Shown here: positions 2,021-39,700 of the stretch, piece by piece
How the letters are laid out: every line of letters starts with the position of its first letter
How positions within the stretch are numbered: the stretch's first letter is position 1
Position numbers and translations under genes: made by a program
The notes under the pieces: generated by a model
Database searches by the model: none
Told to the model about the DNA's origin: nothing
The model's input: the letters and a program-made list of their open reading frames with translations, nothing else
Source: a virus
Taxonomy: Duplodnaviria > Caudoviricetes
Length of the DNA: 64,000 nucleotides
Reading direction: 5' to 3' (one strand)
Virus record (IMG/VR): IMGVR_UViG_3300032038_000018
Coordinates: 64,377 to 128,376 of that record

Positions 2021-4674
2021 TGAAGATTACTTTATTAGAATTGACTAATTTCGCGGCTATATATGTGGGTCTGAGACGAGAACGTCTCAGACTCGACTTT
2101 TCTAAATTTGATAATATAATAACCATCATAGTTGGCGAAATGGGTACTGGTAAAACTACCATATTATCTCAACTTCATCCATGGTCTAATATAGGAGTAT
2201 TGGATGAGAGAAACTCAGATCAGATGATTAGATCTGAAAAAGACGGAATAAAACACATAGTATTTAAAGACGGAAATGATACATTCGATATAGTCCATAA
2301 ATATACATGGACTAAAGACCATCATTCTACTAAATCATTTTTTAAATTTAATGGAGAAGAATTGAACCCAAATGGAAATGTATCTTCTTTTAAAGATATA
2401 GTAACTAAAATGATGGGTGTTGACCAATCATATCTAAGAATAACTAGGCTCGGTCCTAATGTATCTAATCTAATAGATATGCCATGGAACCAACGTAAAT
2501 CATATGTTGCATCTATAATAGAGAATGTAGATATCTATACTAATATCTTAGTAGAGATAAGAAACATGATAAAGTCATGTGATGCTGAATTATCTGCTCT
2601 TACCAAACAAGTTATGGGTGTAACAGATGATGAACTAAAGAATATGAAAATACAATTAGTAGAATTAGATAAATCATTAGATGATGATTCTAAAAAGATA
2701 CTAAATATGTATGCTGATATACAACAGATAGTATCAGAGAATAATCTGATACTAGGTAAATATGAAAATGATATATCAGCTGCTAAAGGAAAAATAAATA
2801 GCAGACTATCTAGAAATAGAGATAAACAATCTGATTTATCTAATAGGATAAGAGAGCTTGATGGAAATATTGACATAAATACAGTCATGATGGAAATCGG
2901 TAGCATATCTGCTAATATAGACAATACTAAACAGAATAGATCTCTACTTGAGGATCAATACAATACATTATCTGTACAACTAAATCAATTAGAGACTAAG
3001 AAGAATAATTCAGCAGATTCACGGTATATGGAAGAGCTCATAAAGAATTATCAAGATCTGGTTAATAAGGTATCATTCTATAATGAGCAATTAGCTAATT
3101 ATAAGCCCGGAATGACATCTGCCGAAATAAATAGTCTAATATCCGATATACGGACATTAGATGAAATAATATTTGCTACCAGATCTTACAATAGACATAT
3201 TCTAAATGATATCTTATCATCATCTATGAATAATCCTGTATCATATGCTAAAGAGCAGATAAGTAAGTTACAGGAGAGAATAATCAAATTAAAAAGACAT
3301 ATATCCAATCTCAGATATCTTGAATCATATAACGTAACTAGTGAATTACCTGAGATAACTAATAAAGAATGTCTGTTATGTCCTTATTATACTACACATC
3401 CAAATATAGCTAAGAAAACAAATCAAGGGAAGACAGAATCTAAGATAAAAGAAATAAATGCTGAGATAGAAGAATGCCAGAATAAAATTAACTTGTATGA
3501 TGATTACTCTGTGGTAAATACCAAGATAGAGCAATGCAAACGTTTATTCTATAATATAAAAGATAGTGTACAAAAGCTTAGTGCACTTAAGTCTTATGAT
3601 ATTAAAGGCATACTGCTATCTAACAATGTGTGGTATGATTATGATAAAATAATTACAGAGCTAGAGTTGGCTGTAAACTATAATGACAGAAATATTATAT
3701 CATCAAAACTAATTGATCTGAAAGCTGAGATAGACAGATATGAGCATTTAAATTTAGATGAAATAGTTAAGCAGATAAAATCTAAATCTGATATGCTGGA
3801 AGATACTAAAACTGCAATTAAAGAATGCGATGACAATATAACTAAGCTTAATGGTGAATTAGAGCGTCTTAATAAAGTAATGAATGATTACACTATAATA
3901 GATGATCTGAAAAGAGATCTATCTGTAGTGGAAAAATTACTCGAAGATGATGACAAACTATTGGAAGAATTACTAAAAGATTCCGATAAATTGCAATCAA
4001 ATAAATTCGATTTAAATGATTTACAAGATAGGTTCGACCACTTACAGGGACAATACAATTCAAACAAAACAAACTACGAAAAGTTATCCAATACAATCAA
4101 TATTATAGAGACTAGTAAAGCTCAGATAAATGATTTACAAGAAAAGAAATACATATATGAATTAATAAAGGATGCATCATCTCCACAGACAGGTATTCCT
4201 CTTTTATATGTACAACTATTCTTGAATGATTGTATTACAATAACTAATCAACTTATATCTATGGTATTGGATGAGTCTGTAGAAATAATGGGTCTAGATT
4301 TATCTAAACCTGATATGAAAATCCCTTATAGAAAAAATGGTCAAATCATGGAAGATGTAAAGAGTGCATCTCAAGGTGAAAGAGCTGCTATATCTTTAGC
4401 ATTATCATTTGCATTTATGCATAAATGCTTAGCTATGAATAAAGGAGATTATAATTATAACATCTTACTTTTAGATGAAATAGATGCTCCATTTGATTCT
4501 AATGCCAGAGATAAATGCATTCAGATATTAGCTCAACAGATAAAAGTCAATAATGTAGAGCAAGTATTCTTCATTACTCATAATGATAGATACGATGGAT
4601 ATCCAGTTAATGTTATAGCTACATCTGACTCACCAAATATAAGAAAAGATGTACCTCTACTGAAAGTATACTAA
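2020..4674 (+). CDS. sbcC: SbcC/Rad50-like SMC-family ATPase
   Basis: Walker A GEMGTGKTT, long coiled coils around a CLLC zinc hook, signature ASQGE, Walker B LLLDE, H-loop ITH. Confidence 0.9.
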   Translation: MKITLLELTNFAAIYVGLRRERLRLDFSKFDNIITIIVGEMGTGKTTILSQLHPWSNIGVLDERNSDQMIRSEKDGIKHIVFKDGNDTFDIVHKYTWTKDHHSTKSFFKFNGEELNPNGNVSSFKDIVTKMMGVDQSYLRITRLGPNVSNLIDMPWNQRKSYVASIIENVDIYTNILVEIRNMIKSCDAELSALTKQVMGVTDDELKNMKIQLVELDKSLDDDSKKILNMYADIQQIVSENNLILGKYENDISAAKGKINSRLSRNRDKQSDLSNRIRELDGNIDINTVMMEIGSISANIDNTKQNRSLLEDQYNTLSVQLNQLETKKNNSADSRYMEELIKNYQDLVNKVSFYNEQLANYKPGMTSAEINSLISDIRTLDEIIFATRSYNRHILNDILSSSMNNPVSYAKEQISKLQERIIKLKRHISNLRYLESYNVTSELPEITNKECLLCPYYTTHPNIAKKTNQGKTESKIKEINAEIEECQNKINLYDDYSVVNTKIEQCKRLFYNIKDSVQKLSALKSYDIKGILLSNNVWYDYDKIITELELAVNYNDRNIISSKLIDLKAEIDRYEHLNLDEIVKQIKSKSDMLEDTKTAIKECDDNITKLNGELERLNKVMNDYTIIDDLKRDLSVVEKLLEDDDKLLEELLKDSDKLQSNKFDLNDLQDRFDHLQGQYNSNKTNYEKLSNTINIIETSKAQINDLQEKKYIYELIKDASSPQTGIPLLYVQLFLNDCITITNQLISMVLDESVEIMGLDLSKPDMKIPYRKNGQIMEDVKSASQGERAAISLALSFAFMHKCLAMNKGDYNYNILLLDEIDAPFDSNARDKCIQILAQQIKVNNVEQVFFITHNDRYDGYPVNVIATSDSPNIRKDVPLLKVY

Positions 4675-4741: not shown

Positions 4742-5149
4742 ATGATTAATATGACCACAAACGAGTCATATCAAATGTATCTAGACAACCAAGAAGTGTG
4801 TGAGATTTGCAACTCACATGCTTCCGATTTGAGGACAATCGCGGAGAACCGCGATGTGTTCTCACTCCTTAAGGAGGACCTGCCACGCCCTCCAAAACGC
4901 AGGAAGGTAATAAAGCTTTTCAAGGAGAAGTTGGTTATCATCCTAATCGCATTCTGTTGCGCAGCATTGTCCATCCAGCACATAGTGCTGACGATGCACG
5001 CAGCAGGTGCAGACGCTCCAATCTTCTACAAAGGGTGGCAACAAGAAGATTGGTGTATCTGTTTACTAATGCTCATTGCGATGGGCATTGACTACTGCGC
5101 ACTGCTAGTAGTCAGACGCAACGAAAGGAGGGTTGAGCATGGAGTTTGA
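4742..5149 (+). CDS. Hypothetical membrane protein (two predicted TM helices)
   Basis: AAGGAG RBS; hydrophobic segments LVIILIAFCCAALSI and WCICLLMLIAMGIDYCALLVV. Confidence 0.6.
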   Translation: MINMTTNESYQMYLDNQEVCEICNSHASDLRTIAENRDVFSLLKEDLPRPPKRRKVIKLFKEKLVIILIAFCCAALSIQHIVLTMHAAGADAPIFYKGWQQEDWCICLLMLIAMGIDYCALLVVRRNERRVEHGV

Positions 5150-6081: not shown

Positions 6082-8133
6082 ATGACATTCAAAGACGGCT
6101 GGATAAAACAGATGTCTGATGTGTTAAAAATGAATTCATCATCCGATATCAATATGTCAGATGACGAATTAGCATCAGCATTATCTAGCATTTATGATGA
6201 ACATGTTAATTCACCAAATGTGAGTTTAGTTAATAACTACAAAGGCTTTGCGGTGCAATGCTCATTAGAAGAAATATTTAACATTATAACGAGTGACAAC
6301 GCAATCTTAGCCGGTGATGGAGTTTTATTCCGGAAGCAAAATAAAGAGCTTTCTGATATGGTACCTGTAATTATTAAGTACCAACAAGACAGAAAGAAAG
6401 AGAAGAATCTTATGAAGCAGTATGAGAAAGGTACTGCAGAATATTTATATCATGACAGAAATCAGAGAAACAAGAAAGTTGTCATTAATGCATTATACGG
6501 ATTATTTGGATATGCTAAGTTTAGATTCTTTAATATAAACATAGCACAATCTGTTACTGCATCTGGTCAGTTGATAATATCAACTGCAACATGTTGTTTT
6601 GAGAACTTCTTGGCAGACAATACTAAGTTTATTTTATTTGATGAGTGTATTTTATTCATCAATAGAATGCAATCATTCTATAATAGTTTACCTGAAGAAG
6701 ATAAACTCTTATTTATGTATCTGCCAGATATTACACTGGAAGATGCCGTTCATCGTATCAGTGAACATTCATACAGCAACTATACTGCGAATGAAGCAAC
6801 ATATATAATTGACTGTCTAAAGAATTTATCGCAAGATGAATTAAAACTTATATATTATAAGAATAATCTAAGGGCATTCAATGATACTGATTATGTGCAC
6901 AATTTACTACAAGAAATATTTGACGCAATCGAACATCTGCAATTGGGTGAATTAACTGCATTCGATTCACCTGAAAAGTTTAATACAATATGCCAACCAA
7001 ATGCAAAAGGATTGGTTGAGAAACTTATTCACTTATATGACATATTTGTTTTAGACACACATCAAGTCTTCGATAGAGTTAGACGTACTAAATATACATC
7101 AAAGAAATCTGTAATGTATATTGACACCGACTCAAACTTTGTAGCGCTTGAAGAATTTGTAGATTATTTCACAAATACTGTACATGATAAATATAACAAT
7201 ATGGATTCATTCATATTCAAGTGTACTTCTATACTAACCATAATAGTATCGCATGTAGTAGCAGAAACATATACTGAATTTGCTAAGAGCATGAATATTG
7301 AAATGAGTTATGGTAGTAGAATACGAATGAAGAATGAATTCTTATTCTCTATATTAGTATTTGGTACATCTAAGAAGAGATACTTTGGTAAGATGATAAT
7401 ACAAGAGGGCAAACTTATCAAAGAAGGTAAAGGTGCTATAGAGATAAAAGGTTTTGACTTTAAGAAAGCAGCAACAAAAGTCGAGATCTATGATAAGATA
7501 TGCAAGATGCTATTTGACACAATACTCGACGTAAATCAAATTTCATATGGCGATGTATTAAGAAGTGCCAATGATTTTAAAGAAAACATCAAGAAAGACA
7601 TTTTAAACGGCAGCAATCTATACTACAAACAGTTATCCGTTAGTACACCAGATAAATATAAGAACCCTTATAGTATGCAAGGCATCAAAGGCGTTCTTCT
7701 CTGGAATGCTATAGTTGATAAACAAGATAGGATGGAATTTCCAACGGAAGTTGATATAATTCCTATACCATTTGATAAGTTTAGCGATAAGAAATTCAAA
7801 GAGTTTTTGAATAATCCGAAAGCGTTCTTTGAAGCAAATGGTAGAGATCCTAAGTATAGTGCGTTATACAATTTCTATTCAAATCATAGCGAACAGTTTA
7901 CACGCATGATTATAACTATGACAGAACACCCAGATATATGGACAAAATTCCCATCTAGTATAGCTAAACCTAGGGCAATGACAGAATTGCCTGATTGGTT
8001 AAAAGATATAATAGATATTGACACAATCGTCCATAACAATGTAAACTTAATAAACCCAATTTTAGAGAGTGTTGGCATTCCTATTATCAATGAGAAATTA
8101 GGCCCAATGTTTACCACTCTAGTTAGTCTTTAA
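6082..8133 (+). CDS. Family B DNA polymerase, C-terminal subunit (fingers, motifs B and C, thumb)
   Basis: KKVVINALYGLFG (motif B), YIDTDS (motif C), SKKRYFG, EIKG; lacks the exonuclease and motif A. Confidence 0.88.
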   Translation: MTFKDGWIKQMSDVLKMNSSSDINMSDDELASALSSIYDEHVNSPNVSLVNNYKGFAVQCSLEEIFNIITSDNAILAGDGVLFRKQNKELSDMVPVIIKYQQDRKKEKNLMKQYEKGTAEYLYHDRNQRNKKVVINALYGLFGYAKFRFFNINIAQSVTASGQLIISTATCCFENFLADNTKFILFDECILFINRMQSFYNSLPEEDKLLFMYLPDITLEDAVHRISEHSYSNYTANEATYIIDCLKNLSQDELKLIYYKNNLRAFNDTDYVHNLLQEIFDAIEHLQLGELTAFDSPEKFNTICQPNAKGLVEKLIHLYDIFVLDTHQVFDRVRRTKYTSKKSVMYIDTDSNFVALEEFVDYFTNTVHDKYNNMDSFIFKCTSILTIIVSHVVAETYTEFAKSMNIEMSYGSRIRMKNEFLFSILVFGTSKKRYFGKMIIQEGKLIKEGKGAIEIKGFDFKKAATKVEIYDKICKMLFDTILDVNQISYGDVLRSANDFKENIKKDILNGSNLYYKQLSVSTPDKYKNPYSMQGIKGVLLWNAIVDKQDRMEFPTEVDIIPIPFDKFSDKKFKEFLNNPKAFFEANGRDPKYSALYNFYSNHSEQFTRMIITMTEHPDIWTKFPSSIAKPRAMTELPDWLKDIIDIDTIVHNNVNLINPILESVGIPIINEKLGPMFTTLVSL

Positions 8134-10513: not shown

Positions 10514-12543
10514 TGGTAAGCCAAGATTTTATAAATGATATAAAGATAGGTACCAATGTTATAGACGGAAAAGAATACAAAGATACATTACAGGCAGTAG
10601 CTGAGATTACATGTGAGATTGTAATGAAGACTCTTGGTCCATATGCATCTACTACTGTTATCGATGATGGCTCTTCTACTTATTCTACTAAGGATGGCTG
10701 GAGCGTTGTCAATAGAATAAGATTTAGTGATGCAATAGAGAATATTCTTTTTGGTTTTATAAAAGATATATCATTCTCTCTGAATAGTAAAGTTGGTGAT
10801 GGTACTACTACAGCTATAGTAGCAGCTAATACTTTCATCAAGAAATTCAGATCTTGGATAGAAAATGCAAGGAATGATAGTGATTCAGACTTCCATAATT
10901 TGAGACAAGCAGATCTTCTTAAGGCTATAGAAGAAACTGCAGACTCTATTATAAATGAACTCAAGTCTGATTCAAGAGTAAGGTATATAGAAAATCCTGA
11001 AGATGTATACAAGATTGCATATATATCTACTAATGGTAATGCGCAGATATCTAAAATGATATCTGATATTTATAGAGAAACATCTAATCCTAATATTCAT
11101 GTAACTCTTAATACAGGTGGAGAAACCAGAGCAGAAATAGAGAATGGGTATAAGATAGATGCTAAGCTTCTTAATGCTGCTTGTCACTTCAATACAAGTG
11201 AAGAAACATGCGAATTTAATGATGAATGCAAAGTTGTAATATTCGATCATAATGTTACATACACTAAGCACTATAAGCTGATACAGTCATTAATTAATTC
11301 TATATGCAATCAGCAGAAGCCTCAGGCACTTGTTATAATTGCACCTTACTATGATGAAATATTTGCATCTGTTATGAGTGCAACTATTCGTAAGATAACT
11401 AATAATGGACAAATTAGTCCTGTTATGTTGGTACAAGTACCTTATAGTACTACTAATCAGAAATGCTACATCAATGACTTTGCTGTATTGTGTGAAACTC
11501 AGATATTTGATTCATCTAAATTAGAGATGTACACACAGATGAATAAAGCACTTAGCGGTGAAGTTGAAGAAGATGAAGAAGCTCAGTCAATATTCAAGTC
11601 ATTAATGGAAGCTAATGAATTCAAGACACCTGAAGATATACTGGATTGCTCTATAGGTAAAGCAAGAAAGCTTACTGTAGGTAAGAACTTTGTTTTATTG
11701 GAGAAATTCAGAAAAGATACTACTATGTATAAGAATACATATGACTTCATTAATAAAGAATATGAAGCAGCTAAAGCAAAGGCTGATGCAAATCAGAATA
11801 GAATTAGTCTTTCATATTCTGAAGCACATATGCGTCTTATAAAATTCTCTGGTCAGACAGGCACAATATTTGTTGGTGGAGACAGTGAGCTCTCATGCAA
11901 ATGCCTTAAAGATGCAGTAGACGATGCAGTACTTGCATGCAGATCTGCATATGAACATGGCTATATAAGAGGGCTCAATCTTGAGACATTATCTGCTATA
12001 ACAAAGCTTAGTAATGAGCTTGCAGTAACAGATACACAGAGTAAACTCAAGAAAGAATGCCTTAGCATGTTCTTTGATGTATTCGAGGAATTAGCTATCA
12101 ACGTAATGTATAACAAATATGCTGATGACGATATTAGCAGAGAAGATTTCGCAAATGCCCCTGTATGGAATAACAAGTGGGTAGGCGGAGATTCAAATAA
12201 GCTTTATCTTAATGATAAAGATATCAATACTCCTAAGCTTATTCTGTATGCATGCATTGAGAATAATTATGAGTATAATATAGTTACTGAGCAATTTGCT
12301 CCTGCAGGTTTCTCTGTAGTAAACTCTGTATCTACTGATATAGAAGTTATAAAAGCTACTACCAGTATTCTTTCTCTGCTCCTATCATCTAATCAGCTTA
12401 TATCTATCAATAGGCAATTTGATAGAGATAAGAGCATAGAAGAAGCAGAGAAGCGTGAGAGACAGCGCTATGCAAATATTGCTGATGGCATCATGTCTTC
12501 TGTTAATAAGTATCTCCCAATAAAGATAAAACCTATGACATAA
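10513..12543 (+). CDS. groEL: Phage-encoded GroEL-like chaperonin
   Basis: KTLGP, STKDG, VGDGTTTA (ATP-binding), VGG...DAVDDAV motifs. Confidence 0.9.
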   Translation: MVSQDFINDIKIGTNVIDGKEYKDTLQAVAEITCEIVMKTLGPYASTTVIDDGSSTYSTKDGWSVVNRIRFSDAIENILFGFIKDISFSLNSKVGDGTTTAIVAANTFIKKFRSWIENARNDSDSDFHNLRQADLLKAIEETADSIINELKSDSRVRYIENPEDVYKIAYISTNGNAQISKMISDIYRETSNPNIHVTLNTGGETRAEIENGYKIDAKLLNAACHFNTSEETCEFNDECKVVIFDHNVTYTKHYKLIQSLINSICNQQKPQALVIIAPYYDEIFASVMSATIRKITNNGQISPVMLVQVPYSTTNQKCYINDFAVLCETQIFDSSKLEMYTQMNKALSGEVEEDEEAQSIFKSLMEANEFKTPEDILDCSIGKARKLTVGKNFVLLEKFRKDTTMYKNTYDFINKEYEAAKAKADANQNRISLSYSEAHMRLIKFSGQTGTIFVGGDSELSCKCLKDAVDDAVLACRSAYEHGYIRGLNLETLSAITKLSNELAVTDTQSKLKKECLSMFFDVFEELAINVMYNKYADDDISREDFANAPVWNNKWVGGDSNKLYLNDKDINTPKLILYACIENNYEYNIVTEQFAPAGFSVVNSVSTDIEVIKATTSILSLLLSSNQLISINRQFDRDKSIEEAEKRERQRYANIADGIMSSVNKYLPIKIKPMT

Positions 12544-26735: not shown

Positions 26736-26956
26736 AGAAAACTCTACCCCCTCTCCCTCTGCGCACGTGGTCGGTTAAGACCACGTGCGCATTCACCCTC
26801 TCCCCCTGTAAAGATGATTTAGGAAGCCCGAGCCGAGCACACGAAAGCCGCACGAGCGGCGAGGCTCCAGCCCGCGAACGAAAGGGTAGAGTTCGCATGA
26901 GAACAAAACGAGCCAGCGAAGCCGCCGGTGAGCAAGTAGCCAAACAACAGCACCTC
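26736..26956 (-). repeat. DGR variable region 1 plus downstream homing/hairpin cassette
   Basis: 221-bp GC-rich block repeated at 28783-29003; coding differences fall mostly at codon positions 1 and 2; no A at codon position 3; 13-bp stem hairpin at 26760-26791. Confidence 0.85.
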
Positions 26957-28720
26957 ATAAAGTCCACTCGTTTGGTCTCCACGATAGTAAACCGCGTCGC
27001 ATAATCCCGTAGTTGCACTTCCACCATCACAGTCTATGGTATAACCACCATTATTTAAATCATAATGTATATCTTTACCATGTTTCCAAGTAACGCCTGC
27101 CGTAGTATGAGTGAGATATCCTATATCAGTATAATCACTTGATATTGTAGCTGTAGTTTTAGTAACTGCCTTTAAGTCATTTTGTATTAATACATGTGCA
27201 TTTGTATTACTATCATAACTATACACTGCATTGCCACATACTTCAAGTGTACCTGAAAAAAGTTCTATGCCACTCATTACACTTGGGAATCTGCTATTAA
27301 CAGCAAAATTACCAACTTCATAAGTACCGTCTTTGCCAAGTATATCAAGAGAATATCCGGTTTTATATATAGAAGTTTGTACACTACAAGTTGTATCTAC
27401 TGTAACATTGCTATCTATGTATACAAGACTATATGTAGTCTCACCACTAGCACTATATCCTATAACATTACTATTGCCATCATATGCATATAGCGTATAA
27501 GTAGAGCCAGTAATATCCAATACAAGATTTATGTCAACATCGCTAGTTTCAGATGTATTAGGATCTGTATATGTAAATTGTATACTAATATTATTATCAT
27601 CTAAATCTACTGCATTACCAGTATTAGATATCTTCTTGCACAATATATCAAAATCTGTACTACTAGATATACTATAATCTGTATTAGATATGGTAAATCC
27701 AGTCTTTACATTCTTAAATAATACGATATCATTAGATTTATTTGTAATAGTTGCATTGGAAGCTATATTCATGGATCTTTGATATTGTCTATCAGACTCT
27801 GGATTACCTATATCGATTCTAGTATCTACATATAATTTATTTGCATCTGTAGTTGTAAGCACTACATAATTCTTATTAGTAGTGGCAGTCTGTATATACA
27901 GTCTATTATAATAATAAGAAATTAATCCATTCAAATTATTTGCAAAGTTTGTATGGCCGTATTTCATCATGAATATACGCTGTATCATAGCAGCCTGACC
28001 CATTGTTATAGATGTCATGTTTTCATTTCTAGCATGATACTTATCTACACATGTATTATACGAGGGACCGGTTACTGTGGTAAATGCTTGATGCACCCAC
28101 GGATATTCACCAGCACTACTATAAGGAGCGCCATCTATCCATACAGATGGGAATTTAGTTATTGTATAAAATCCCTGGTCTTTACCATTTATATCTTTGC
28201 ATAAATTATTTAACGTAAATCCGTCTCTGGGAGTATCTGTCCACTCTATGCACAAATAGTCTGTTCCATTTACGGTTTCTTTATATACCCTCTCATATAC
28301 TGAAGCGAATAAGCATACTACGTCTACTTTGCCATAGTAACTAAATCCGGGTTCACCAACTATTGCATCTATTACTATATTGCCATCATCGCCATAGTGT
28401 ACATTAGCATCTATAGATCTAAATACATTTATATTGGCATAATCATCTCTGCCAGCTACAGTACGTGTAGAAGGTTCTACTACTAAACCTTCATTAGCAC
28501 CATATTTAGTACCGGCGGGGACGATTACTCCAGCACTAGTGTAAGCGAATTTTACTCCATATATTTTTTCGTCTCTATTTGCTGCAAAATATAATTTCAG
28601 AAATTCAGATTTATTTTTAAATGGTAATTTATTTATTTTATTTAATTCTCTCTGTTTAGCTTTATCATTATAATATGATAATAAAGATGAATTAATTAGA
28701 GATTTATATTCATTTGCCAT
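26819..28720 (-). CDS. DGR target protein 1 (putative receptor-binding tail protein with CLec-like C-terminus)
   Basis: GIELFSGTLEVC block and C-terminal EVLLFGYLLTGGFAGSFCSHANSTLSFAGWSLAAR; paralogue of 28866-30770. Confidence 0.8.
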   Translation of the reverse strand: MANEYKSLINSSLLSYYNDKAKQRELNKINKLPFKNKSEFLKLYFAANRDEKIYGVKFAYTSAGVIVPAGTKYGANEGLVVEPSTRTVAGRDDYANINVFRSIDANVHYGDDGNIVIDAIVGEPGFSYYGKVDVVCLFASVYERVYKETVNGTDYLCIEWTDTPRDGFTLNNLCKDINGKDQGFYTITKFPSVWIDGAPYSSAGEYPWVHQAFTTVTGPSYNTCVDKYHARNENMTSITMGQAAMIQRIFMMKYGHTNFANNLNGLISYYYNRLYIQTATTNKNYVVLTTTDANKLYVDTRIDIGNPESDRQYQRSMNIASNATITNKSNDIVLFKNVKTGFTISNTDYSISSSTDFDILCKKISNTGNAVDLDDNNISIQFTYTDPNTSETSDVDINLVLDITGSTYTLYAYDGNSNVIGYSASGETTYSLVYIDSNVTVDTTCSVQTSIYKTGYSLDILGKDGTYEVGNFAVNSRFPSVMSGIELFSGTLEVCGNAVYSYDSNTNAHVLIQNDLKAVTKTTATISSDYTDIGYLTHTTAGVTWKHGKDIHYDLNNGGYTIDCDGGSATTGLCDAVYYRGDQTSGLYEVLLFGYLLTGGFAGSFCSHANSTLSFAGWSLAARAAFVCSARAS

Positions 28721-28782
28721 TATAAAACACCTCAATGAGAAATATATTTCAAGAAAGAGGTGGAGTGTTTATTTTCAGATTC

Positions 28783-29003
28783 AGAAAACTCTACCCCCTC
28801 TCCCTCTGCGCATGTGGGCTCAACCGCCCACATGCGCATTCACCCTCTCCCCCTGTAAAGATGATTTAGGAAGCCCGAGCCGAGCAAACGAAAGCCGCGC
28901 GAGCGGCGAAGTACCAGGCCGCGGTCGAAAGGGCAATGTTCGCAAGAGAACAAAACGGGCCAGCGGTGCCGCCGGTGCCCAAGGAGCCAAACAACAGCAC
29001 CTC
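28783..29003 (-). repeat. DGR variable region 2 plus downstream homing/hairpin cassette
   Basis: Second copy of the 221-bp block; hairpin at 28807-28838 with compensatory stem changes. Confidence 0.85.
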
Positions 29004-30770
29004 GTAGAAACCTGATTTCTGATCTCCAAGATAGTAAACACCATCACAGAACCCTGTAGTTGTAGATGCACCATCACAGTTATATAATAGACCACCTAAT
29101 GCTAAGTTATAATGCACGTCTCTTACATACTTCCAACTAGTTCCACTCGTAGTATGACTATGATATCCTGTATCTGTGTATTCTGCTGTGATTGTATTCG
29201 TGGTTTTAGTGATTGCTCTTAAATCATTTTGTAATAAGATATGAACCATAGTGTTACTATCATAATTATAAACTGCATTACCACATACTTCGTTTGTGCC
29301 ACACATCAGTTCTATGCCACTTATTACACTAGGATTCCTCAAACTTGTATTAAATGCTCCGTTAATATAAGAACCATCTTTACCAAGTATTCCGAGAGAA
29401 TATCCTGTATTATAACACGCACTGGTCTGAACACTGCATGTTGTATCTGCAGTTATCGGTCTGTCAAAGTATACTGCAGTATAAGTAGTTTCTCCACTAG
29501 CACTATATCCTATTACATTATTACTGCCATCATATGCATATAGAGTATAAACTCCACCAGTTATGTCAAGTACTAAGTTTATATCTACTGTACTTTCTTC
29601 AGATGTATTGGGATCGGTATATATAAACTGCATTGTGTTATTATCGTCATCTAAATCTACAGCATCTCCAGTAGATGCTAGTTTCTTACATAAGATATCA
29701 AATTCAGATTCACTAGCTATGGTATAATTAGTATCGGATATAGTAAATCCAGCTTTTACATTTTTAAATAAAACTATATCATTAGTTTTACCGGTCACAT
29801 ACAAATTTTGGGCTACACTGAATTGTCTATACGATTGTCTAGCAGACGTCGGATCACCAACATCTATCTGTGTATCAGCATATAACTTATTGGCATCTGT
29901 AGTAGTAAGCACTACATAATTTTTATTTGTAACAGCAGTCTGTAAATACAGCAATACTTGATAATACGAGGATAGACCATTCAATTTCGTTTGATAGTTT
30001 GTATGGCCATATTTCATCATAAATATACGTTGTATCGTAGCTAACTGACCAATAGTCATAGCAGACATATTTTCATTTCTAGCATGATATCTGTCAACAC
30101 AGTTGTTATATGACGGACCAGCTACTCCAGATATATGACCATTTACCCATGGATATCTACCAGCACTACTATAAGGAGCTCCATCTATCCATACAGATGG
30201 GAATTTAGTTATTGTATAAAATCCTTGATTTTTTCCATCTATTCCTTTACATAATATATTTAATGTAAACCCATCTCTGGGAGTATCAGTCCATTCTATA
30301 CATAGCCACTCTACGCCAGATACCGTTTCAGTATATATTTTCTCATATACAGGAGCAAATAAGCATACTACGTCTACTTTACCATAATAGCTAAAACCAT
30401 CTTCACCTTCTAAATAATCTATTACAATACTTCCATCTGATCCATAGTGTACATTAGCATCTATAGATCTAAATACATTTATATTGGCATAATCATCTCT
30501 ACCGGCTACAGTTCTAGTAGATGGTTCTACAACTAGCCCATTATTAGCACCATACTTAACTCCACCACTAGCTTGGATTACGCCATTAGCATCTTTGGGG
30601 AATTTAACCCCATATATTTTTCCGTCTCTATTCATCAGAAACATTTTGGCTAATTGCTCTGATTTGTCTTTTATATATTGACTCTTTATTAAGTCATCTT
30701 CTCTATCTGACTTATTGGAATCGTATCTTTCCAATAAGTCAGTATTTATTAATTTACTATAGTCTGGCAT
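28866..30770 (-). CDS. DGR target protein 2 (putative receptor-binding tail protein with CLec-like C-terminus)
   Basis: C-terminal EVLLFGSLGTGGTAGPFCSLANIALSTAAWYFAAR; paralogue of 26819-28720 along its whole length. Confidence 0.8.
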   Translation of the reverse strand: MPDYSKLINTDLLERYDSNKSDREDDLIKSQYIKDKSEQLAKMFLMNRDGKIYGVKFPKDANGVIQASGGVKYGANNGLVVEPSTRTVAGRDDYANINVFRSIDANVHYGSDGSIVIDYLEGEDGFSYYGKVDVVCLFAPVYEKIYTETVSGVEWLCIEWTDTPRDGFTLNILCKGIDGKNQGFYTITKFPSVWIDGAPYSSAGRYPWVNGHISGVAGPSYNNCVDRYHARNENMSAMTIGQLATIQRIFMMKYGHTNYQTKLNGLSSYYQVLLYLQTAVTNKNYVVLTTTDANKLYADTQIDVGDPTSARQSYRQFSVAQNLYVTGKTNDIVLFKNVKAGFTISDTNYTIASESEFDILCKKLASTGDAVDLDDDNNTMQFIYTDPNTSEESTVDINLVLDITGGVYTLYAYDGSNNVIGYSASGETTYTAVYFDRPITADTTCSVQTSACYNTGYSLGILGKDGSYINGAFNTSLRNPSVISGIELMCGTNEVCGNAVYNYDSNTMVHILLQNDLRAITKTTNTITAEYTDTGYHSHTTSGTSWKYVRDVHYNLALGGLLYNCDGASTTTGFCDGVYYLGDQKSGFYEVLLFGSLGTGGTAGPFCSLANIALSTAAWYFAARAAFVCSARAS

Positions 30771-33456: not shown

Positions 33457-33945
33457 TTATGCAAACATTGCATCTATATCGCTAGTAGATGCTAGTCCTA
33501 TATCTGCTAATGCGACATATGTAGATGCCGCATCTGTTTTAGATAAATAAGTCGTGCCAGCATCTGTCTGTGATAGATACGTAGATGATGCATCCGTCTT
33601 AGAAAGATACGTACTACTAGCATCTGACTTAGACAAATAATCACTAGCTGCATCTGTTTTGGAAAGATATGTCGAAGTTGCATCGGACTTAGATAGATAA
33701 TTCGTTGATGCATCTGTCTGTGTTAGATATGTAGATGCGGCATCAGTCTTAGCTAAATATGTTGAAGCTGCATCTGTTTTAGATAGATATGTACTAGGAA
33801 TAGCATCAAGTGTACTATCTAATTCATCTACAGCTGCTTGTATATTTGTGGCAGTTAATTCACTCGTGGTATTGACATATGCTATATTAATCGCTCTATT
33901 ACCAGAGCCACCATATTCAATACCCCTCTTAATTATTTTTCCCAT
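33457..33945 (-). CDS. Fibre-like protein with 10-aa repeats
   Basis: Nine YLSKTDAxST-type repeats after an ATNIQAAVDEL motif. Confidence 0.6.
   Translation of the reverse strand: MGKIIKRGIEYGGSGNRAINIAYVNTTSELTATNIQAAVDELDSTLDAIPSTYLSKTDAASTYLAKTDAASTYLTQTDASTNYLSKSDATSTYLSKTDAASDYLSKSDASSTYLSKTDASSTYLSQTDAGTTYLSKTDAASTYVALADIGLASTSDIDAMFA
33520..33789. repeat. Degenerate 30-bp coding tandem repeat (9 units)
   Basis: Period-30 repeats encoding YL(S/A/T)(K/Q)(T/S)DAxxx. Confidence 0.85.
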
Positions 33946-36704: not shown

Positions 36705-39700
36705 GATACAGTCACCGTCCCTAATGTTATAGTAATTCTATGAGTATTTTCATCGTATTCAACATTTGTTACAGCAGTTCCAGATGCACTGTCTTTATAT
36801 GCTAAATCACCAAGACCGGTTGGAGTTCCTCCACCACCAGAGCCATATTTATATCCAATTATTTTATAGATATAAGGTTCATTTCCTGAGCCTTCGTTTG
36901 AATAGGCATATGATTGCCTTACTTTTGTATCATATATGAAAGCAGTCAATGTTCTTTGAGACCAACCGGCCCAATTTATTAAAGGATTATCCAATAAATG
37001 AGGAACGTCGTATATGCACGAAGCAGCTTGATATGTGCCTTCGCGTGCATTATCATTAGGCGAGCATATAATAAATTCTACTGTATCATAGTTGCTAAGA
37101 TTATCTAATAATGTTACGTCTTGTTGATATGGTATATGCTGTAAATAACTACCGCTATCATATAACGTAGCACGTGTAAATGACGATCCACCAGATGAGC
37201 CACCGCCAGATCCATACTTATATCCATATATCTTGTATATCTGTGGATTAAAGGCAGAACCTTCGTAGTTAGTTCCACGTAGAGTCTCATTAAATGTTGT
37301 ATCCGTGAATTTAACAACGCACCAACGTCCTTCATATCCAGCATAATGAACACCATTGGTATCTGAATCCAAAGCATCAGTAACGTCTGCAATAAATGTA
37401 TCGCACTGATATCCATTTGCGGTCCCATTATCTTGTGGATTACCAACGACGCATATAACGCTATCGTAATTACTAAGATTATCGGATAAAGCTACATCAG
37501 TTTGATATGGAGCACCATCGATATAGCTGCCACTATCATAGAGTAACGTACGACCAAACGGTTCTCCACCGCCGCCGCTACCGCCACCACTAGCGTCGTA
37601 GTCAGTTATGAGATATGTAATATCGGGATCAGGCGATACTAATGCGTCATATTGAGCTTGTGTTAATTCAACAAACTCAGGAATGGGATTATTATTCTTA
37701 GTAATATTACCATTGACATTTAATGTATCATCAGATACTTCAACTATATTAGATCTATCATTGTCGGCAGTACCATTACCAACTATGAATAAATGTTTAG
37801 GGTCATTTGCACCAGTGCCATCTGCAACGTTGTATTTACCTATTACAGTAGATGCATTTGCAGTAGCTATAGTATTCTGTCCACTAGCATGTGAGTATTC
37901 ACCAGTTGCAGAGTTATTCTTATAATCATTAAAGATTTCACCATTCTTATTGGTATTCGAATCGAATGTACCAACTGTCTTAAATGCTCCTAAACTGATC
38001 TCAGACATAGATGAAATTATTCTTCTGAGATCTACTACAACTTTAGGAAATTCTCCAGTTTCATATTCTTGAAGATATCTAATAAATGCAGTAGATGCAC
38101 CACTAAAGAATGCATTCATCTGTGCTACAGGAACATTTAATGTTATAGATGGATCAGATGTGTCTCTAAGTGTACCTGCTGTTACTGCATTACCACTTAT
38201 ATCACAATTGCCTGTAAGAAGATTTATTCTAAGAGGAATTACATCGCTTCTTATAGGACCATCTATCTGTTGTGCTGCAGTAATATGCATATACATATAC
38301 TGCTTATCTTTATGCATTATAATACTAGAAGAAGGCTCTATTATTTCACCTGCACGATGTAATATAGTTACGCCATCTTCATCATATACATCTTCTGTAT
38401 ATCTTTGTAATAAGTCCTTAAATGTGATATTATTGTCATAAGATATTATCTTAACGGACTCATTCATCATTCCATCATAAGGACTAGAATCCCATCCTGT
38501 AAACTTTTTACCCTGCTGTACCATGATATTTGTCATATCATAAGATACAGTATTAGTTGTATCAGGATTGTGGATATATAATGTATGATAAGCATATAAC
38601 TCAGATTCATCAGAATCAAAATAGAATGTTACTATATAATACTCATCATTAACACCTGTGTTAGCAGGTATAGTATGAGATACATACTCGTTATTATCTA
38701 TTTTAACCTCTATAGTTTTAGCTACAGATGCCTTCTTAAATAATATAGCAACCGTAAAACCTTCTAAACTATTTGAAACGAAATTCTGAGAAATTACGCC
38801 ATTACCAACTATTGCAATCTTTGCAATAGTTTGATTTAAGAACTGATCTACTATTATAGTAGAAGCAGCAGCATCTATATTATTATATCCATTCCATTCG
38901 CTATTAAAGCCACCAAGGAAATTGCTATTCCTGATGAGATTAACAACACCGAAATCTTTAATATCTAATGCACCATTAGCGCCAATTTCAACATTTGAAT
39001 CAGTTGGAACTGTAACGGTACCTGCAGTAACTATGCCGGTATTATAATCTGTAGATGCATAAGAAGTTCTTACAAGTGCATTATCAAGAGCACTTTCAAC
39101 ATTCTCAACTCTGCTTGTTAAATTACCAACTCTTGTAGTTGCTGTATTAGCTGCAGTAATAGCATTATCTATATTAGTTAGATCTGCACTAGTCATTAAA
39201 CCATTAGAGTTTGCTGATCTAGTCGGTATTCTACTAGTAGCATTTTCTGCAGTTATGAATTTGAGATCAGCTTGACCTTTTGTATAGAATTCAGCATCAA
39301 GTCTGGATAATATATTTGTGATATTATCACTGTTATTAGTAACACGTGTATTTATCTCACCAACATTGAGTATGGTTGCATATGTTGATGCAGCATCAGT
39401 CTGTGTTAGATATGTTGCAGCTAAAGTATCATTATCGGTATAATTGTCACTAATGTTATCGTTAATTGCAGCTAATGCAGCAGCAACTTCGAGCTTATAT
39501 GCATTTAATGTGGCTTCCTCTAAGTAAACACCGGCAGGCGCAAACTTAACAGTTAAATCATCTAATAATGCACTATTTAATACATTAGTACTATCGGCGT
39601 TACCATTAAAGCCAGCTTCCAATCTAATCAGATCAGTATCTTGAGGAGCAGGTGTACCATCAGGATGATTTCCTGTTAATGACTCAAATGTTACCAGATT

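Follow-up and report, generated by a model that had tools for sequence, protein, structure and literature searches.

The viral record IMGVR_UViG_3300032038_000018 comprises 128 kb with a GC content of 35% and an estimated completeness of 52%, and a metagenome contig of 236 kb opens with the same sequence. We analysed here a window of 64,000 nucleotides (nt), bases 64377-128376 of this record; positions refer to the window unless marked otherwise. In tandem on its minus strand lie two paralogous genes, A and B, that are targets of a diversity-generating retroelement (DGR). Behind the stop codon of each stands a conserved non-coding block of 83 nt, which we term the post-VR cassette after the variable repeat (VR) that precedes it. 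The coding DNA of the two targets is only 73-83% identical. A third paralogous target (P0003) with the same cassette is located 87 kb away in the same record (G000:C1 2549-4462). A tail tube gene lies near target gene A, whose product is probably a tail or receptor-binding protein within the tail module.

Both cassettes are built in the same way. On the coding strand (26818 to 26736 for cassette A, 28865 to 28783 for cassette B) the stop codon is followed by a 12-nt spacer, the purine tract G5-AGA-G3, the linker TGAA, a hairpin with two 13-nt arms and a 6-nt loop, the linker GA, the purine tract G3-AGA-G5 and an 11-nt tail, the right tract continuing into TAGAGTTTTCT. Cassettes A and B share 73 of 83 positions, and the 10 that differ are all in the hairpin, where two compensatory pairs (C:G to T:A and T:A to G:C) and the six loop bases have changed. 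Loop B matches the reverse complement of loop A at five of six bases, for which our own calculation, as a post hoc test, gives a chance of about 0.005. The likeness of A and B ends immediately past position 83; upstream, conservation starts before the stop codon and extends through a GC-rich stretch of 42 nt. A preliminary description, made from the letters of this DNA, had reported the conservation after both stop codons with differences confined to the hairpin, the exact mirror-image G-tracts, the two compensatory stem pairs and the roughly reverse-complemented loop, and all of these observations are confirmed.

The cassette is a genuine feature and stands out statistically. As single-stranded DNA, the hairpin folds with -17.6 kcal/mol in A (z = -5.4) and -18.1 kcal/mol in B (z = -6.6), and none of 200 shuffles folded equally well. 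The 11-nt G-tract motif occurs four times in the window against 0.03 occurrences expected, each time at a cassette, and throughout the 128-kb record it is found only at the three cassettes and after none of the other genes. The record has 11 runs of at least five G or C, and 5 of them fall in the three cassettes. The cassettes are likewise its top three G4Hunter peaks (scores 1.36-1.40), three of its only four relaxed quadruplex motifs and its only GC-rich mirror repeats with 11-nt arms. The purine mirror arms are exact, with a spacer of 38 nt unless the palindrome extrudes, so that four G-runs (5, 3, 3, 5) are arranged with 3-nt outer loops and a central loop of 38 nt. The cassette of the third copy has G4 instead of G5 as its first G-run.

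The assignment of the locus to a DGR, made in the preliminary description, is supported by the template repeat (TR). A blastn search did not find the TR inside the window; it was located in the whole record at G000:C1 4650-4740, as an A-rich fourth copy of the repeat about 190 nt past the third target. Against seven VRs, three of this phage and four of close relatives, the TR shows 12-16 A-to-N differences each, at TR adenines. The initiation of mutagenic homing (IMH) sequence opens with a G/C-rich block of 15 nt and differs from its counterpart at the TR, IMH*, at 10 of 29 aligned positions, which is the usual relation of IMH and IMH*. The cassette follows all three VRs of this phage and is absent after the TR. 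The positions of these features are collected in Table 1.

Table 1. DGR target genes, repeats and post-VR cassettes in the window
Feature	Position	Strand	Basis
Post-VR cassette A, whole 83-nt conserved block	26736..26818	-	A/B comparison, folding
Cassette A, right purine tract G3-AGA-G5, exact mirror of the left; GA linker 26758-26759 before it	26747..26757	-	motif and mirror-repeat scans
Cassette A, hairpin; arms 26779-26791 and 26760-26772, loop 26773-26778 (TTAACC)	26760..26791	-	folding, pair counts
Cassette A, left purine tract G5-AGA-G3; TGAA linker 26792-26795 after it	26796..26806	-	motif scan
DGR target gene A (P0001, 638 amino acids)	26819..28735	-	open reading frame (ORF); paralogues P0002 and P0003 at 69-72% identity
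IMH of target A, 42 nt, GC-rich start, differs from the IMH* of the TR	26822..26863	-	alignment
VR of target A, 91 nt homologous to the TR	26864..26954	-	alignment to TR: 14 A-to-N differences
Post-VR cassette B, whole 83-nt block	28783..28865	-	A/B comparison, folding
Cassette B, right purine tract	28794..28804	-	motif scan
Cassette B, hairpin; arms 28826-28838 and 28807-28819, loop 28820-28825 (GGTTGA); differs from A by two compensated pairs	28807..28838	-	folding, pair counts
Cassette B, left purine tract	28843..28853	-	motif scan
DGR target gene B (P0002, 634 amino acids), tandem paralogue of A	28866..30770	-	ORF
IMH of target B	28869..28910	-	alignment
VR of target B	28911..29001	-	alignment to TR: 13 A-to-N differences

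Homologues of the target protein, about 30, were found on large contigs, many of them longer than 100 kb. The flanks do not vary within the near lineage (71-94% protein identity). Its two variable stem pairs are seen in every compensated combination, as recombinant haplotypes, together with one uncompensated intermediate; 98.7% of the stem cells are paired, and two pairs carry double changes. Because only two loop alleles exist in this lineage, recurrent flipping of the loop is not needed to explain them, and one inversion and one substitution, spread by recombination, are enough. In a relative with 86% identity (L039) an unrelated GC hairpin of 10 bp with a 5-nt loop (CACCT) stands in the same place, within surrounding DNA that is almost identical. 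Both flanks are kept, each longer by one G3, and the additions are in mirror order. A reading of the flanks as a 9-nt direct repeat, that is, the target-site duplication of an inserted palindrome, was rejected on this ground, as the L039 flanks are mirror-ordered and not direct.

The sister lineage, with 50-53% protein identity and jumbo contigs of 130-238 kb, retains G5-TGAA, a hairpin and GA-G5 in this order, the hairpin being one of two further unrelated types, of 10 bp with AT-rich ends and a 3-nt loop (GAA) or of about 23 imperfectly paired bp with a 17-nt loop. Four unrelated hairpins thus occupy the same slot across the family. There is one G5 per side in this lineage; the right one pairs with a downstream C-run in a second hairpin, after which follows a canonical terminator. 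The proposal that structure rather than sequence is kept is upheld by the compensatory pairs, the stem pairing and the outright replacement of the hairpin in relatives. The G-tracts, whose lack of conservation in homologues had been named as a refuting finding, are kept as G-run flanks down to 50% protein identity, but the four-run layout is confined to the near lineage. The loop of the second hairpin behind the sister-lineage cassette carries tandem GCGAAGC-type units (L042 9905-9935, L048 6895-6925), and the central hairpin also closes with C-GAA-G; the sequence GCGAAGC forms very stable DNA mini-hairpins.

The link of the cassette to VRs also extends to the relatives, in which it follows VRs and never TRs, and in every cassette examined the G-runs are on the sense strand. 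Paralogues without a VR/IMH end carry no cassette. A reverse transcriptase (RT) adjoins the TR in relatives, and in L048, where this is a PF00078 protein, the A-to-N pattern is clean. In L048 and L072 no more than 1-2 of about 42 IMH positions distinguish the TR from the VR, the two remain alike to the end of the stop codon, and the cassette starts exactly at the point of divergence. In a relative with 94% identity (L073 1200-1384), the C-terminus of the paralogue that precedes the target is not diversified; the end of this gene is nearly the same as the IMH* of the TR of this phage (a 17-nt block with one mismatch), and no cassette follows. This suggests that the TR derives from a gene end of this kind and that VR, IMH and cassette move between paralogues as one block. 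Other searches, in collections from which near relatives may be missing, were negative: blastn against the database "phages" with the cassette region gave no match, and exact-pattern scans found none in viral contigs (IMH end and flank pattern) or in metagenomes (stop-plus-spacer pattern). A viral scan for G5-TGAAT followed by GA-G5-T returned 20 matches, all apparently by chance, with neither a hairpin nor a VR context.

The closest known element is the target hairpin of the Bordetella phage BPP-1 (Guo et al. 2011, PMC3240598). In BPP-1 the structure of the stem matters and its sequence does not, and the hairpin affects the efficiency of cDNA integration but not its site; stems are typically of 7-10 bp, and the 4-nt GRNA loop is critical in sequence and size (PMC3240598). 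Such repeats were reported in 34% of DGRs by Wu et al., and where IMH and IMH* are identical, recognition must reach downstream (PMC5758913). MyDGR searches only for stems of 7-10 bp with GRNA loops (PMC6602519). In the BPP-1 sequence as we read it, the stop codon leads straight into a GC stem of 8 bp that carries a GAAA loop, and G-tract flanks are absent. The BPP-1 hairpin and the cassette have in common an inverted repeat just 3' of the VR and IMH, present at the recipient only and absent from the TR, whose stem is conserved in pairing rather than in sequence and which is not a terminator. They differ in the stem, which in the cassette has 13 bp (10 to about 23 bp in relatives) and thus lies outside the 7-10-bp GC-rich range, and in the loop, which has 3-17 nt, is of no GRNA type and occurs in two roughly reverse-complementary forms. 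Unlike in BPP-1, the conserved sequence lies in the flanks rather than in the loop.

Distant homologous targets with 30% identity lie on gut phage contigs of about 40 kb (L008-L036). These contigs, which we take to be of the Hankyphage type, have G5-TGAA 12 nt past the stop codon, at the same spacing as in the cassette and absent from the TR. A canonical hairpin with a 6-bp GC stem and a GAAA loop follows 9 nt further on, and there is no right-hand G-tract and no mirror repeat; the TR is without hairpin here as well. A further likeness is found in group IIC introns targeting terminator stem-loops, where a retroelement also recognises a DNA stem-loop by its structure and the sequence of the loop is unimportant (PMC3240598). 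The cassette differs in having neither intron nor terminator, and its flanks are conserved in sequence. The suggestion of the preliminary description that this may be an undescribed DGR target-recognition element can be kept in a narrower form: the cassette departs from the BPP-1 and MyDGR definitions in stem length and loop and adds G-tract flanks, but it is best taken as a variant of a known hairpin. Because it falls outside these published definitions, it is, judged by its sequence, an undescribed form of a known DGR signal.

The cassette probably serves a jumbo-phage DGR as a cis-acting recipient-site element: any stable stem, together with G-run flanks, would mark the VR. Two parts can be distinguished in it. 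One is a stable hairpin, a cruciform in duplex DNA, in which pairing would matter and sequence, length and loop would not. The other, conserved in sequence, comprises the sense-strand G-run flanks with their short linkers (G3-5-TGAA and GA-G3-5). From the anatomy, the association with VRs and not with TRs, the conservation pattern and the lack of terminator features, all of them observed, we infer a role in homing. As in BPP-1, the structure would make the replacement of the neighbouring VR by adenine-mutagenised cDNA more efficient. The structure would also help to distinguish the VR from the TR, and it would be nearly the sole mark where IMH and IMH* are almost alike. The way in which the cDNA of a DGR reaches its target and takes its place has yet to be explained (PMC12875486). 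In a 2026 study, targets co-directional with replication proved to be preferred, which places the complement of the cDNA on the lagging-strand template and suggests that the cDNA homes there (PMC12875486). Because this template corresponds to the sense strand, which also bears the G-runs, we infer a step at the replication gap: a sense-strand structure just 3' of the VR would sit where an Okazaki fragment enters the VR, and a stable structure there might delay gap filling, keeping the VR single-stranded, or might recruit the RT complex. This step is derived from the replication study. A model in which the cassette pairs with a guide RNA found no support: in this phage and in L048, neither strand of the cassette pairs with RNA near the TR any better than shuffled sequences do.

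Several points weigh against a recipient-site element. The sample consists of about 10 distinct cassettes from one phage family. In the L071 cassette the left G5 is interrupted, and some VR-like paralogue ends of the sister lineage are without a cassette, so that the cassette may not be strictly required. In a DNA palindrome, template switching instead of selection can produce compensatory changes, and the identity among the cassettes of paralogues could partly reflect gene conversion. Other points concern the activity of the DGR in this phage. Three non-adenine mismatches to the TR are fixed across all VRs, which means that the TR has either drifted or is not the sole template. No reverse transcriptase was found in the 128-kb record, neither by a PF00078 search nor by tblastn with the RT of L012, a relative with 30% identity, and among the top 120 homologues listed for the L048 RT none is on the 236-kb contig. 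Current DGR activity in this phage is therefore unproven.

The closest competitor keeps a functional signal and assigns it to a particular structure. The flanks and the hairpin would fold on the sense strand as strand-specific non-B DNA: the hairpin would occupy the long central loop of a G-quadruplex, or a purine-motif triplex would span the extruded cruciform. We hold this to be unlikely, although several features are in its favour. The four G-runs with their 3-nt outer loops, the rank of the cassettes among the quadruplex motifs and G4Hunter peaks of the record, the exact homopurine mirror repeats and the sense-strand position of the G-runs in every cassette all agree with it, as does the mirror-ordered gain of G3 in both L039 flanks, which a direct-repeat or target-duplication reading cannot explain. 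A likeness to quadruplex-duplex hybrids and H-DNA, as generally known, also lies in the four G-runs with a hairpin in a long loop and in a homopurine mirror symmetry that is kept on lengthening. However, the tracts of the cassette are short (11-15 nt), and the four-run layout is not conserved, as the sister lineage has one G5 per side and pairs the right one with a C-run. The central loop of 38 nt is long, the G4Hunter maximum is only 1.36-1.40, the third copy has G4 for the first G5, and a literature search found no paper linking DGRs with quadruplexes. An extended version is equally doubtful: in this phage family, the sequence-specific part of DGR target recognition would have moved from the loop to the G-run flanks, and flanks and interchangeable hairpin, as a quadruplex-duplex hybrid or cruciform-triplex, would hold the lagging-strand template open beside the VR and so license annealing of the mutagenised cDNA.

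Two further explanations do without a DNA signal in homing. It is very improbable that the cassette has no homing role and persists by recent duplication or gene conversion of the VR-IMH end, its palindrome being repaired by template switching. VR, IMH and cassette do apparently move as a unit, given that the upstream paralogue in L073 lacks all three and gene B at that position here has them, and between close orthologues the neighbouring intergenic DNA is equally conserved. Yet the flanks are identical at 51 of 51 positions between paralogues that otherwise diverge in their coding DNA, while the central hairpin differs, which homogenisation would not give; moreover, the core of the flanks is kept to 50% protein identity around unrelated hairpins, and the cassette is strictly absent after TRs and non-VR paralogues. 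Even more remote is an action at the RNA level only, with the hairpin terminating the target mRNA or stabilising its 3' end. In favour of this, a stable hairpin is located in the 3' untranslated region, a run of 4-6 T starts 18 nt past the stem, and some inverted repeats of DGRs double as terminators (PMC5758913). However, no T-run lies within 0-2 nt of the stem, the terminator scan does not flag the cassette hairpin, the sister lineage has a separate canonical terminator behind the cassette, and elsewhere in the 128 kb the motif stands behind no other gene. The preliminary description had named action only as a terminator as a finding that would speak against it, and the hairpin is not a canonical terminator.

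The recipient signals defined so far are only the IMH and the GRNA hairpin of the BPP-1 type. The family amounts to a natural swap experiment, with an interchangeable hairpin, fixed flanks and an IMH that is almost IMH* in the sister lineage. This combination suggests that the recipient mark consists of the flanks and whatever stable stem they enclose, an idea directly testable in existing E. coli reconstitution systems. Current annotation rules for DGRs, which ask for a stem of 7-10 bp and a GRNA loop, miss such elements, and a modular address label could aid the retargeting of DGRs for directed evolution.

A number of smaller observations concern the targets and their surroundings. The VR-like ends without a G-flanked cassette in the sister lineage (L042 ~11950-12011, L043 ~11620-11681 and L049 ~4840-4903) have VR-like codon variation and keep the first half of the IMH before they diverge, one of them with an AT-rich terminator hairpin; these are relics of former targets or else rely on a different signal. 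At the targets of this phage, the GC-rich start of the IMH forms a mini-hairpin of 5 bp with a 4-nt loop, followed by TTTCGT (26847-26860 and 28894-28907, minus strand), which the terminator scan flags as terminator-like; its loop differs by one base between A and B.

Upstream of the TR, at a distance of 40-100 nt, a conserved GTAGRGTAAATAC-like motif occurs in three lineages (L007 ~4590-4612, L048 ~6985-7005, L072 ~1840-1865) and could be the promoter of the TR. Behind the TR lie three small ORFs; checked for an Avd-type accessory gene, they had no Pfam or PHROG match, and Rfam returned no family across the region of target 3 and the TR. In this phage and two relatives, directly upstream of a DGR target and beside a DnaB-type helicase, lies a gene for a PIF1/RecD-like superfamily 1 helicase (G000:C1 957-2150, which is L007; L047 3388-4584; L049 1754-2965). 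Helicases of the Pif1 family unwind quadruplexes; the adjacency of helicase and DGR target may be coincidental and due to the replication module. A stretch of about 300 nt downstream of the helicase gene and ahead of target gene 3 (L007, G000:C1 ~2179-2465) is densely structured and includes an ORF of 49 codons and a G5-TGA motif, without a match in Rfam. In the related jumbo phage L048 an ORF of 99 amino acids (2303-2602), a few kb upstream of the DGR targets, matches a Cas12f1-like TNB domain.

The protein of target gene A matches phrog_17147, a family of unknown function, and had no match in a Pfam search. A PDB profile search with the target protein gave nothing significant, and an AlphaFold model of the C-terminal 169 amino acids, built from an alignment of 15 sequences, had a mean predicted local distance difference test score (pLDDT) of 43; a C-type-lectin fold was not confirmed. 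Finally, a repeat array with a period of 30 nt and about 10 units lies inside a minus-strand ORF of the window (33502-33797), and a related unit is found 5.6 kb away (39375-39422).

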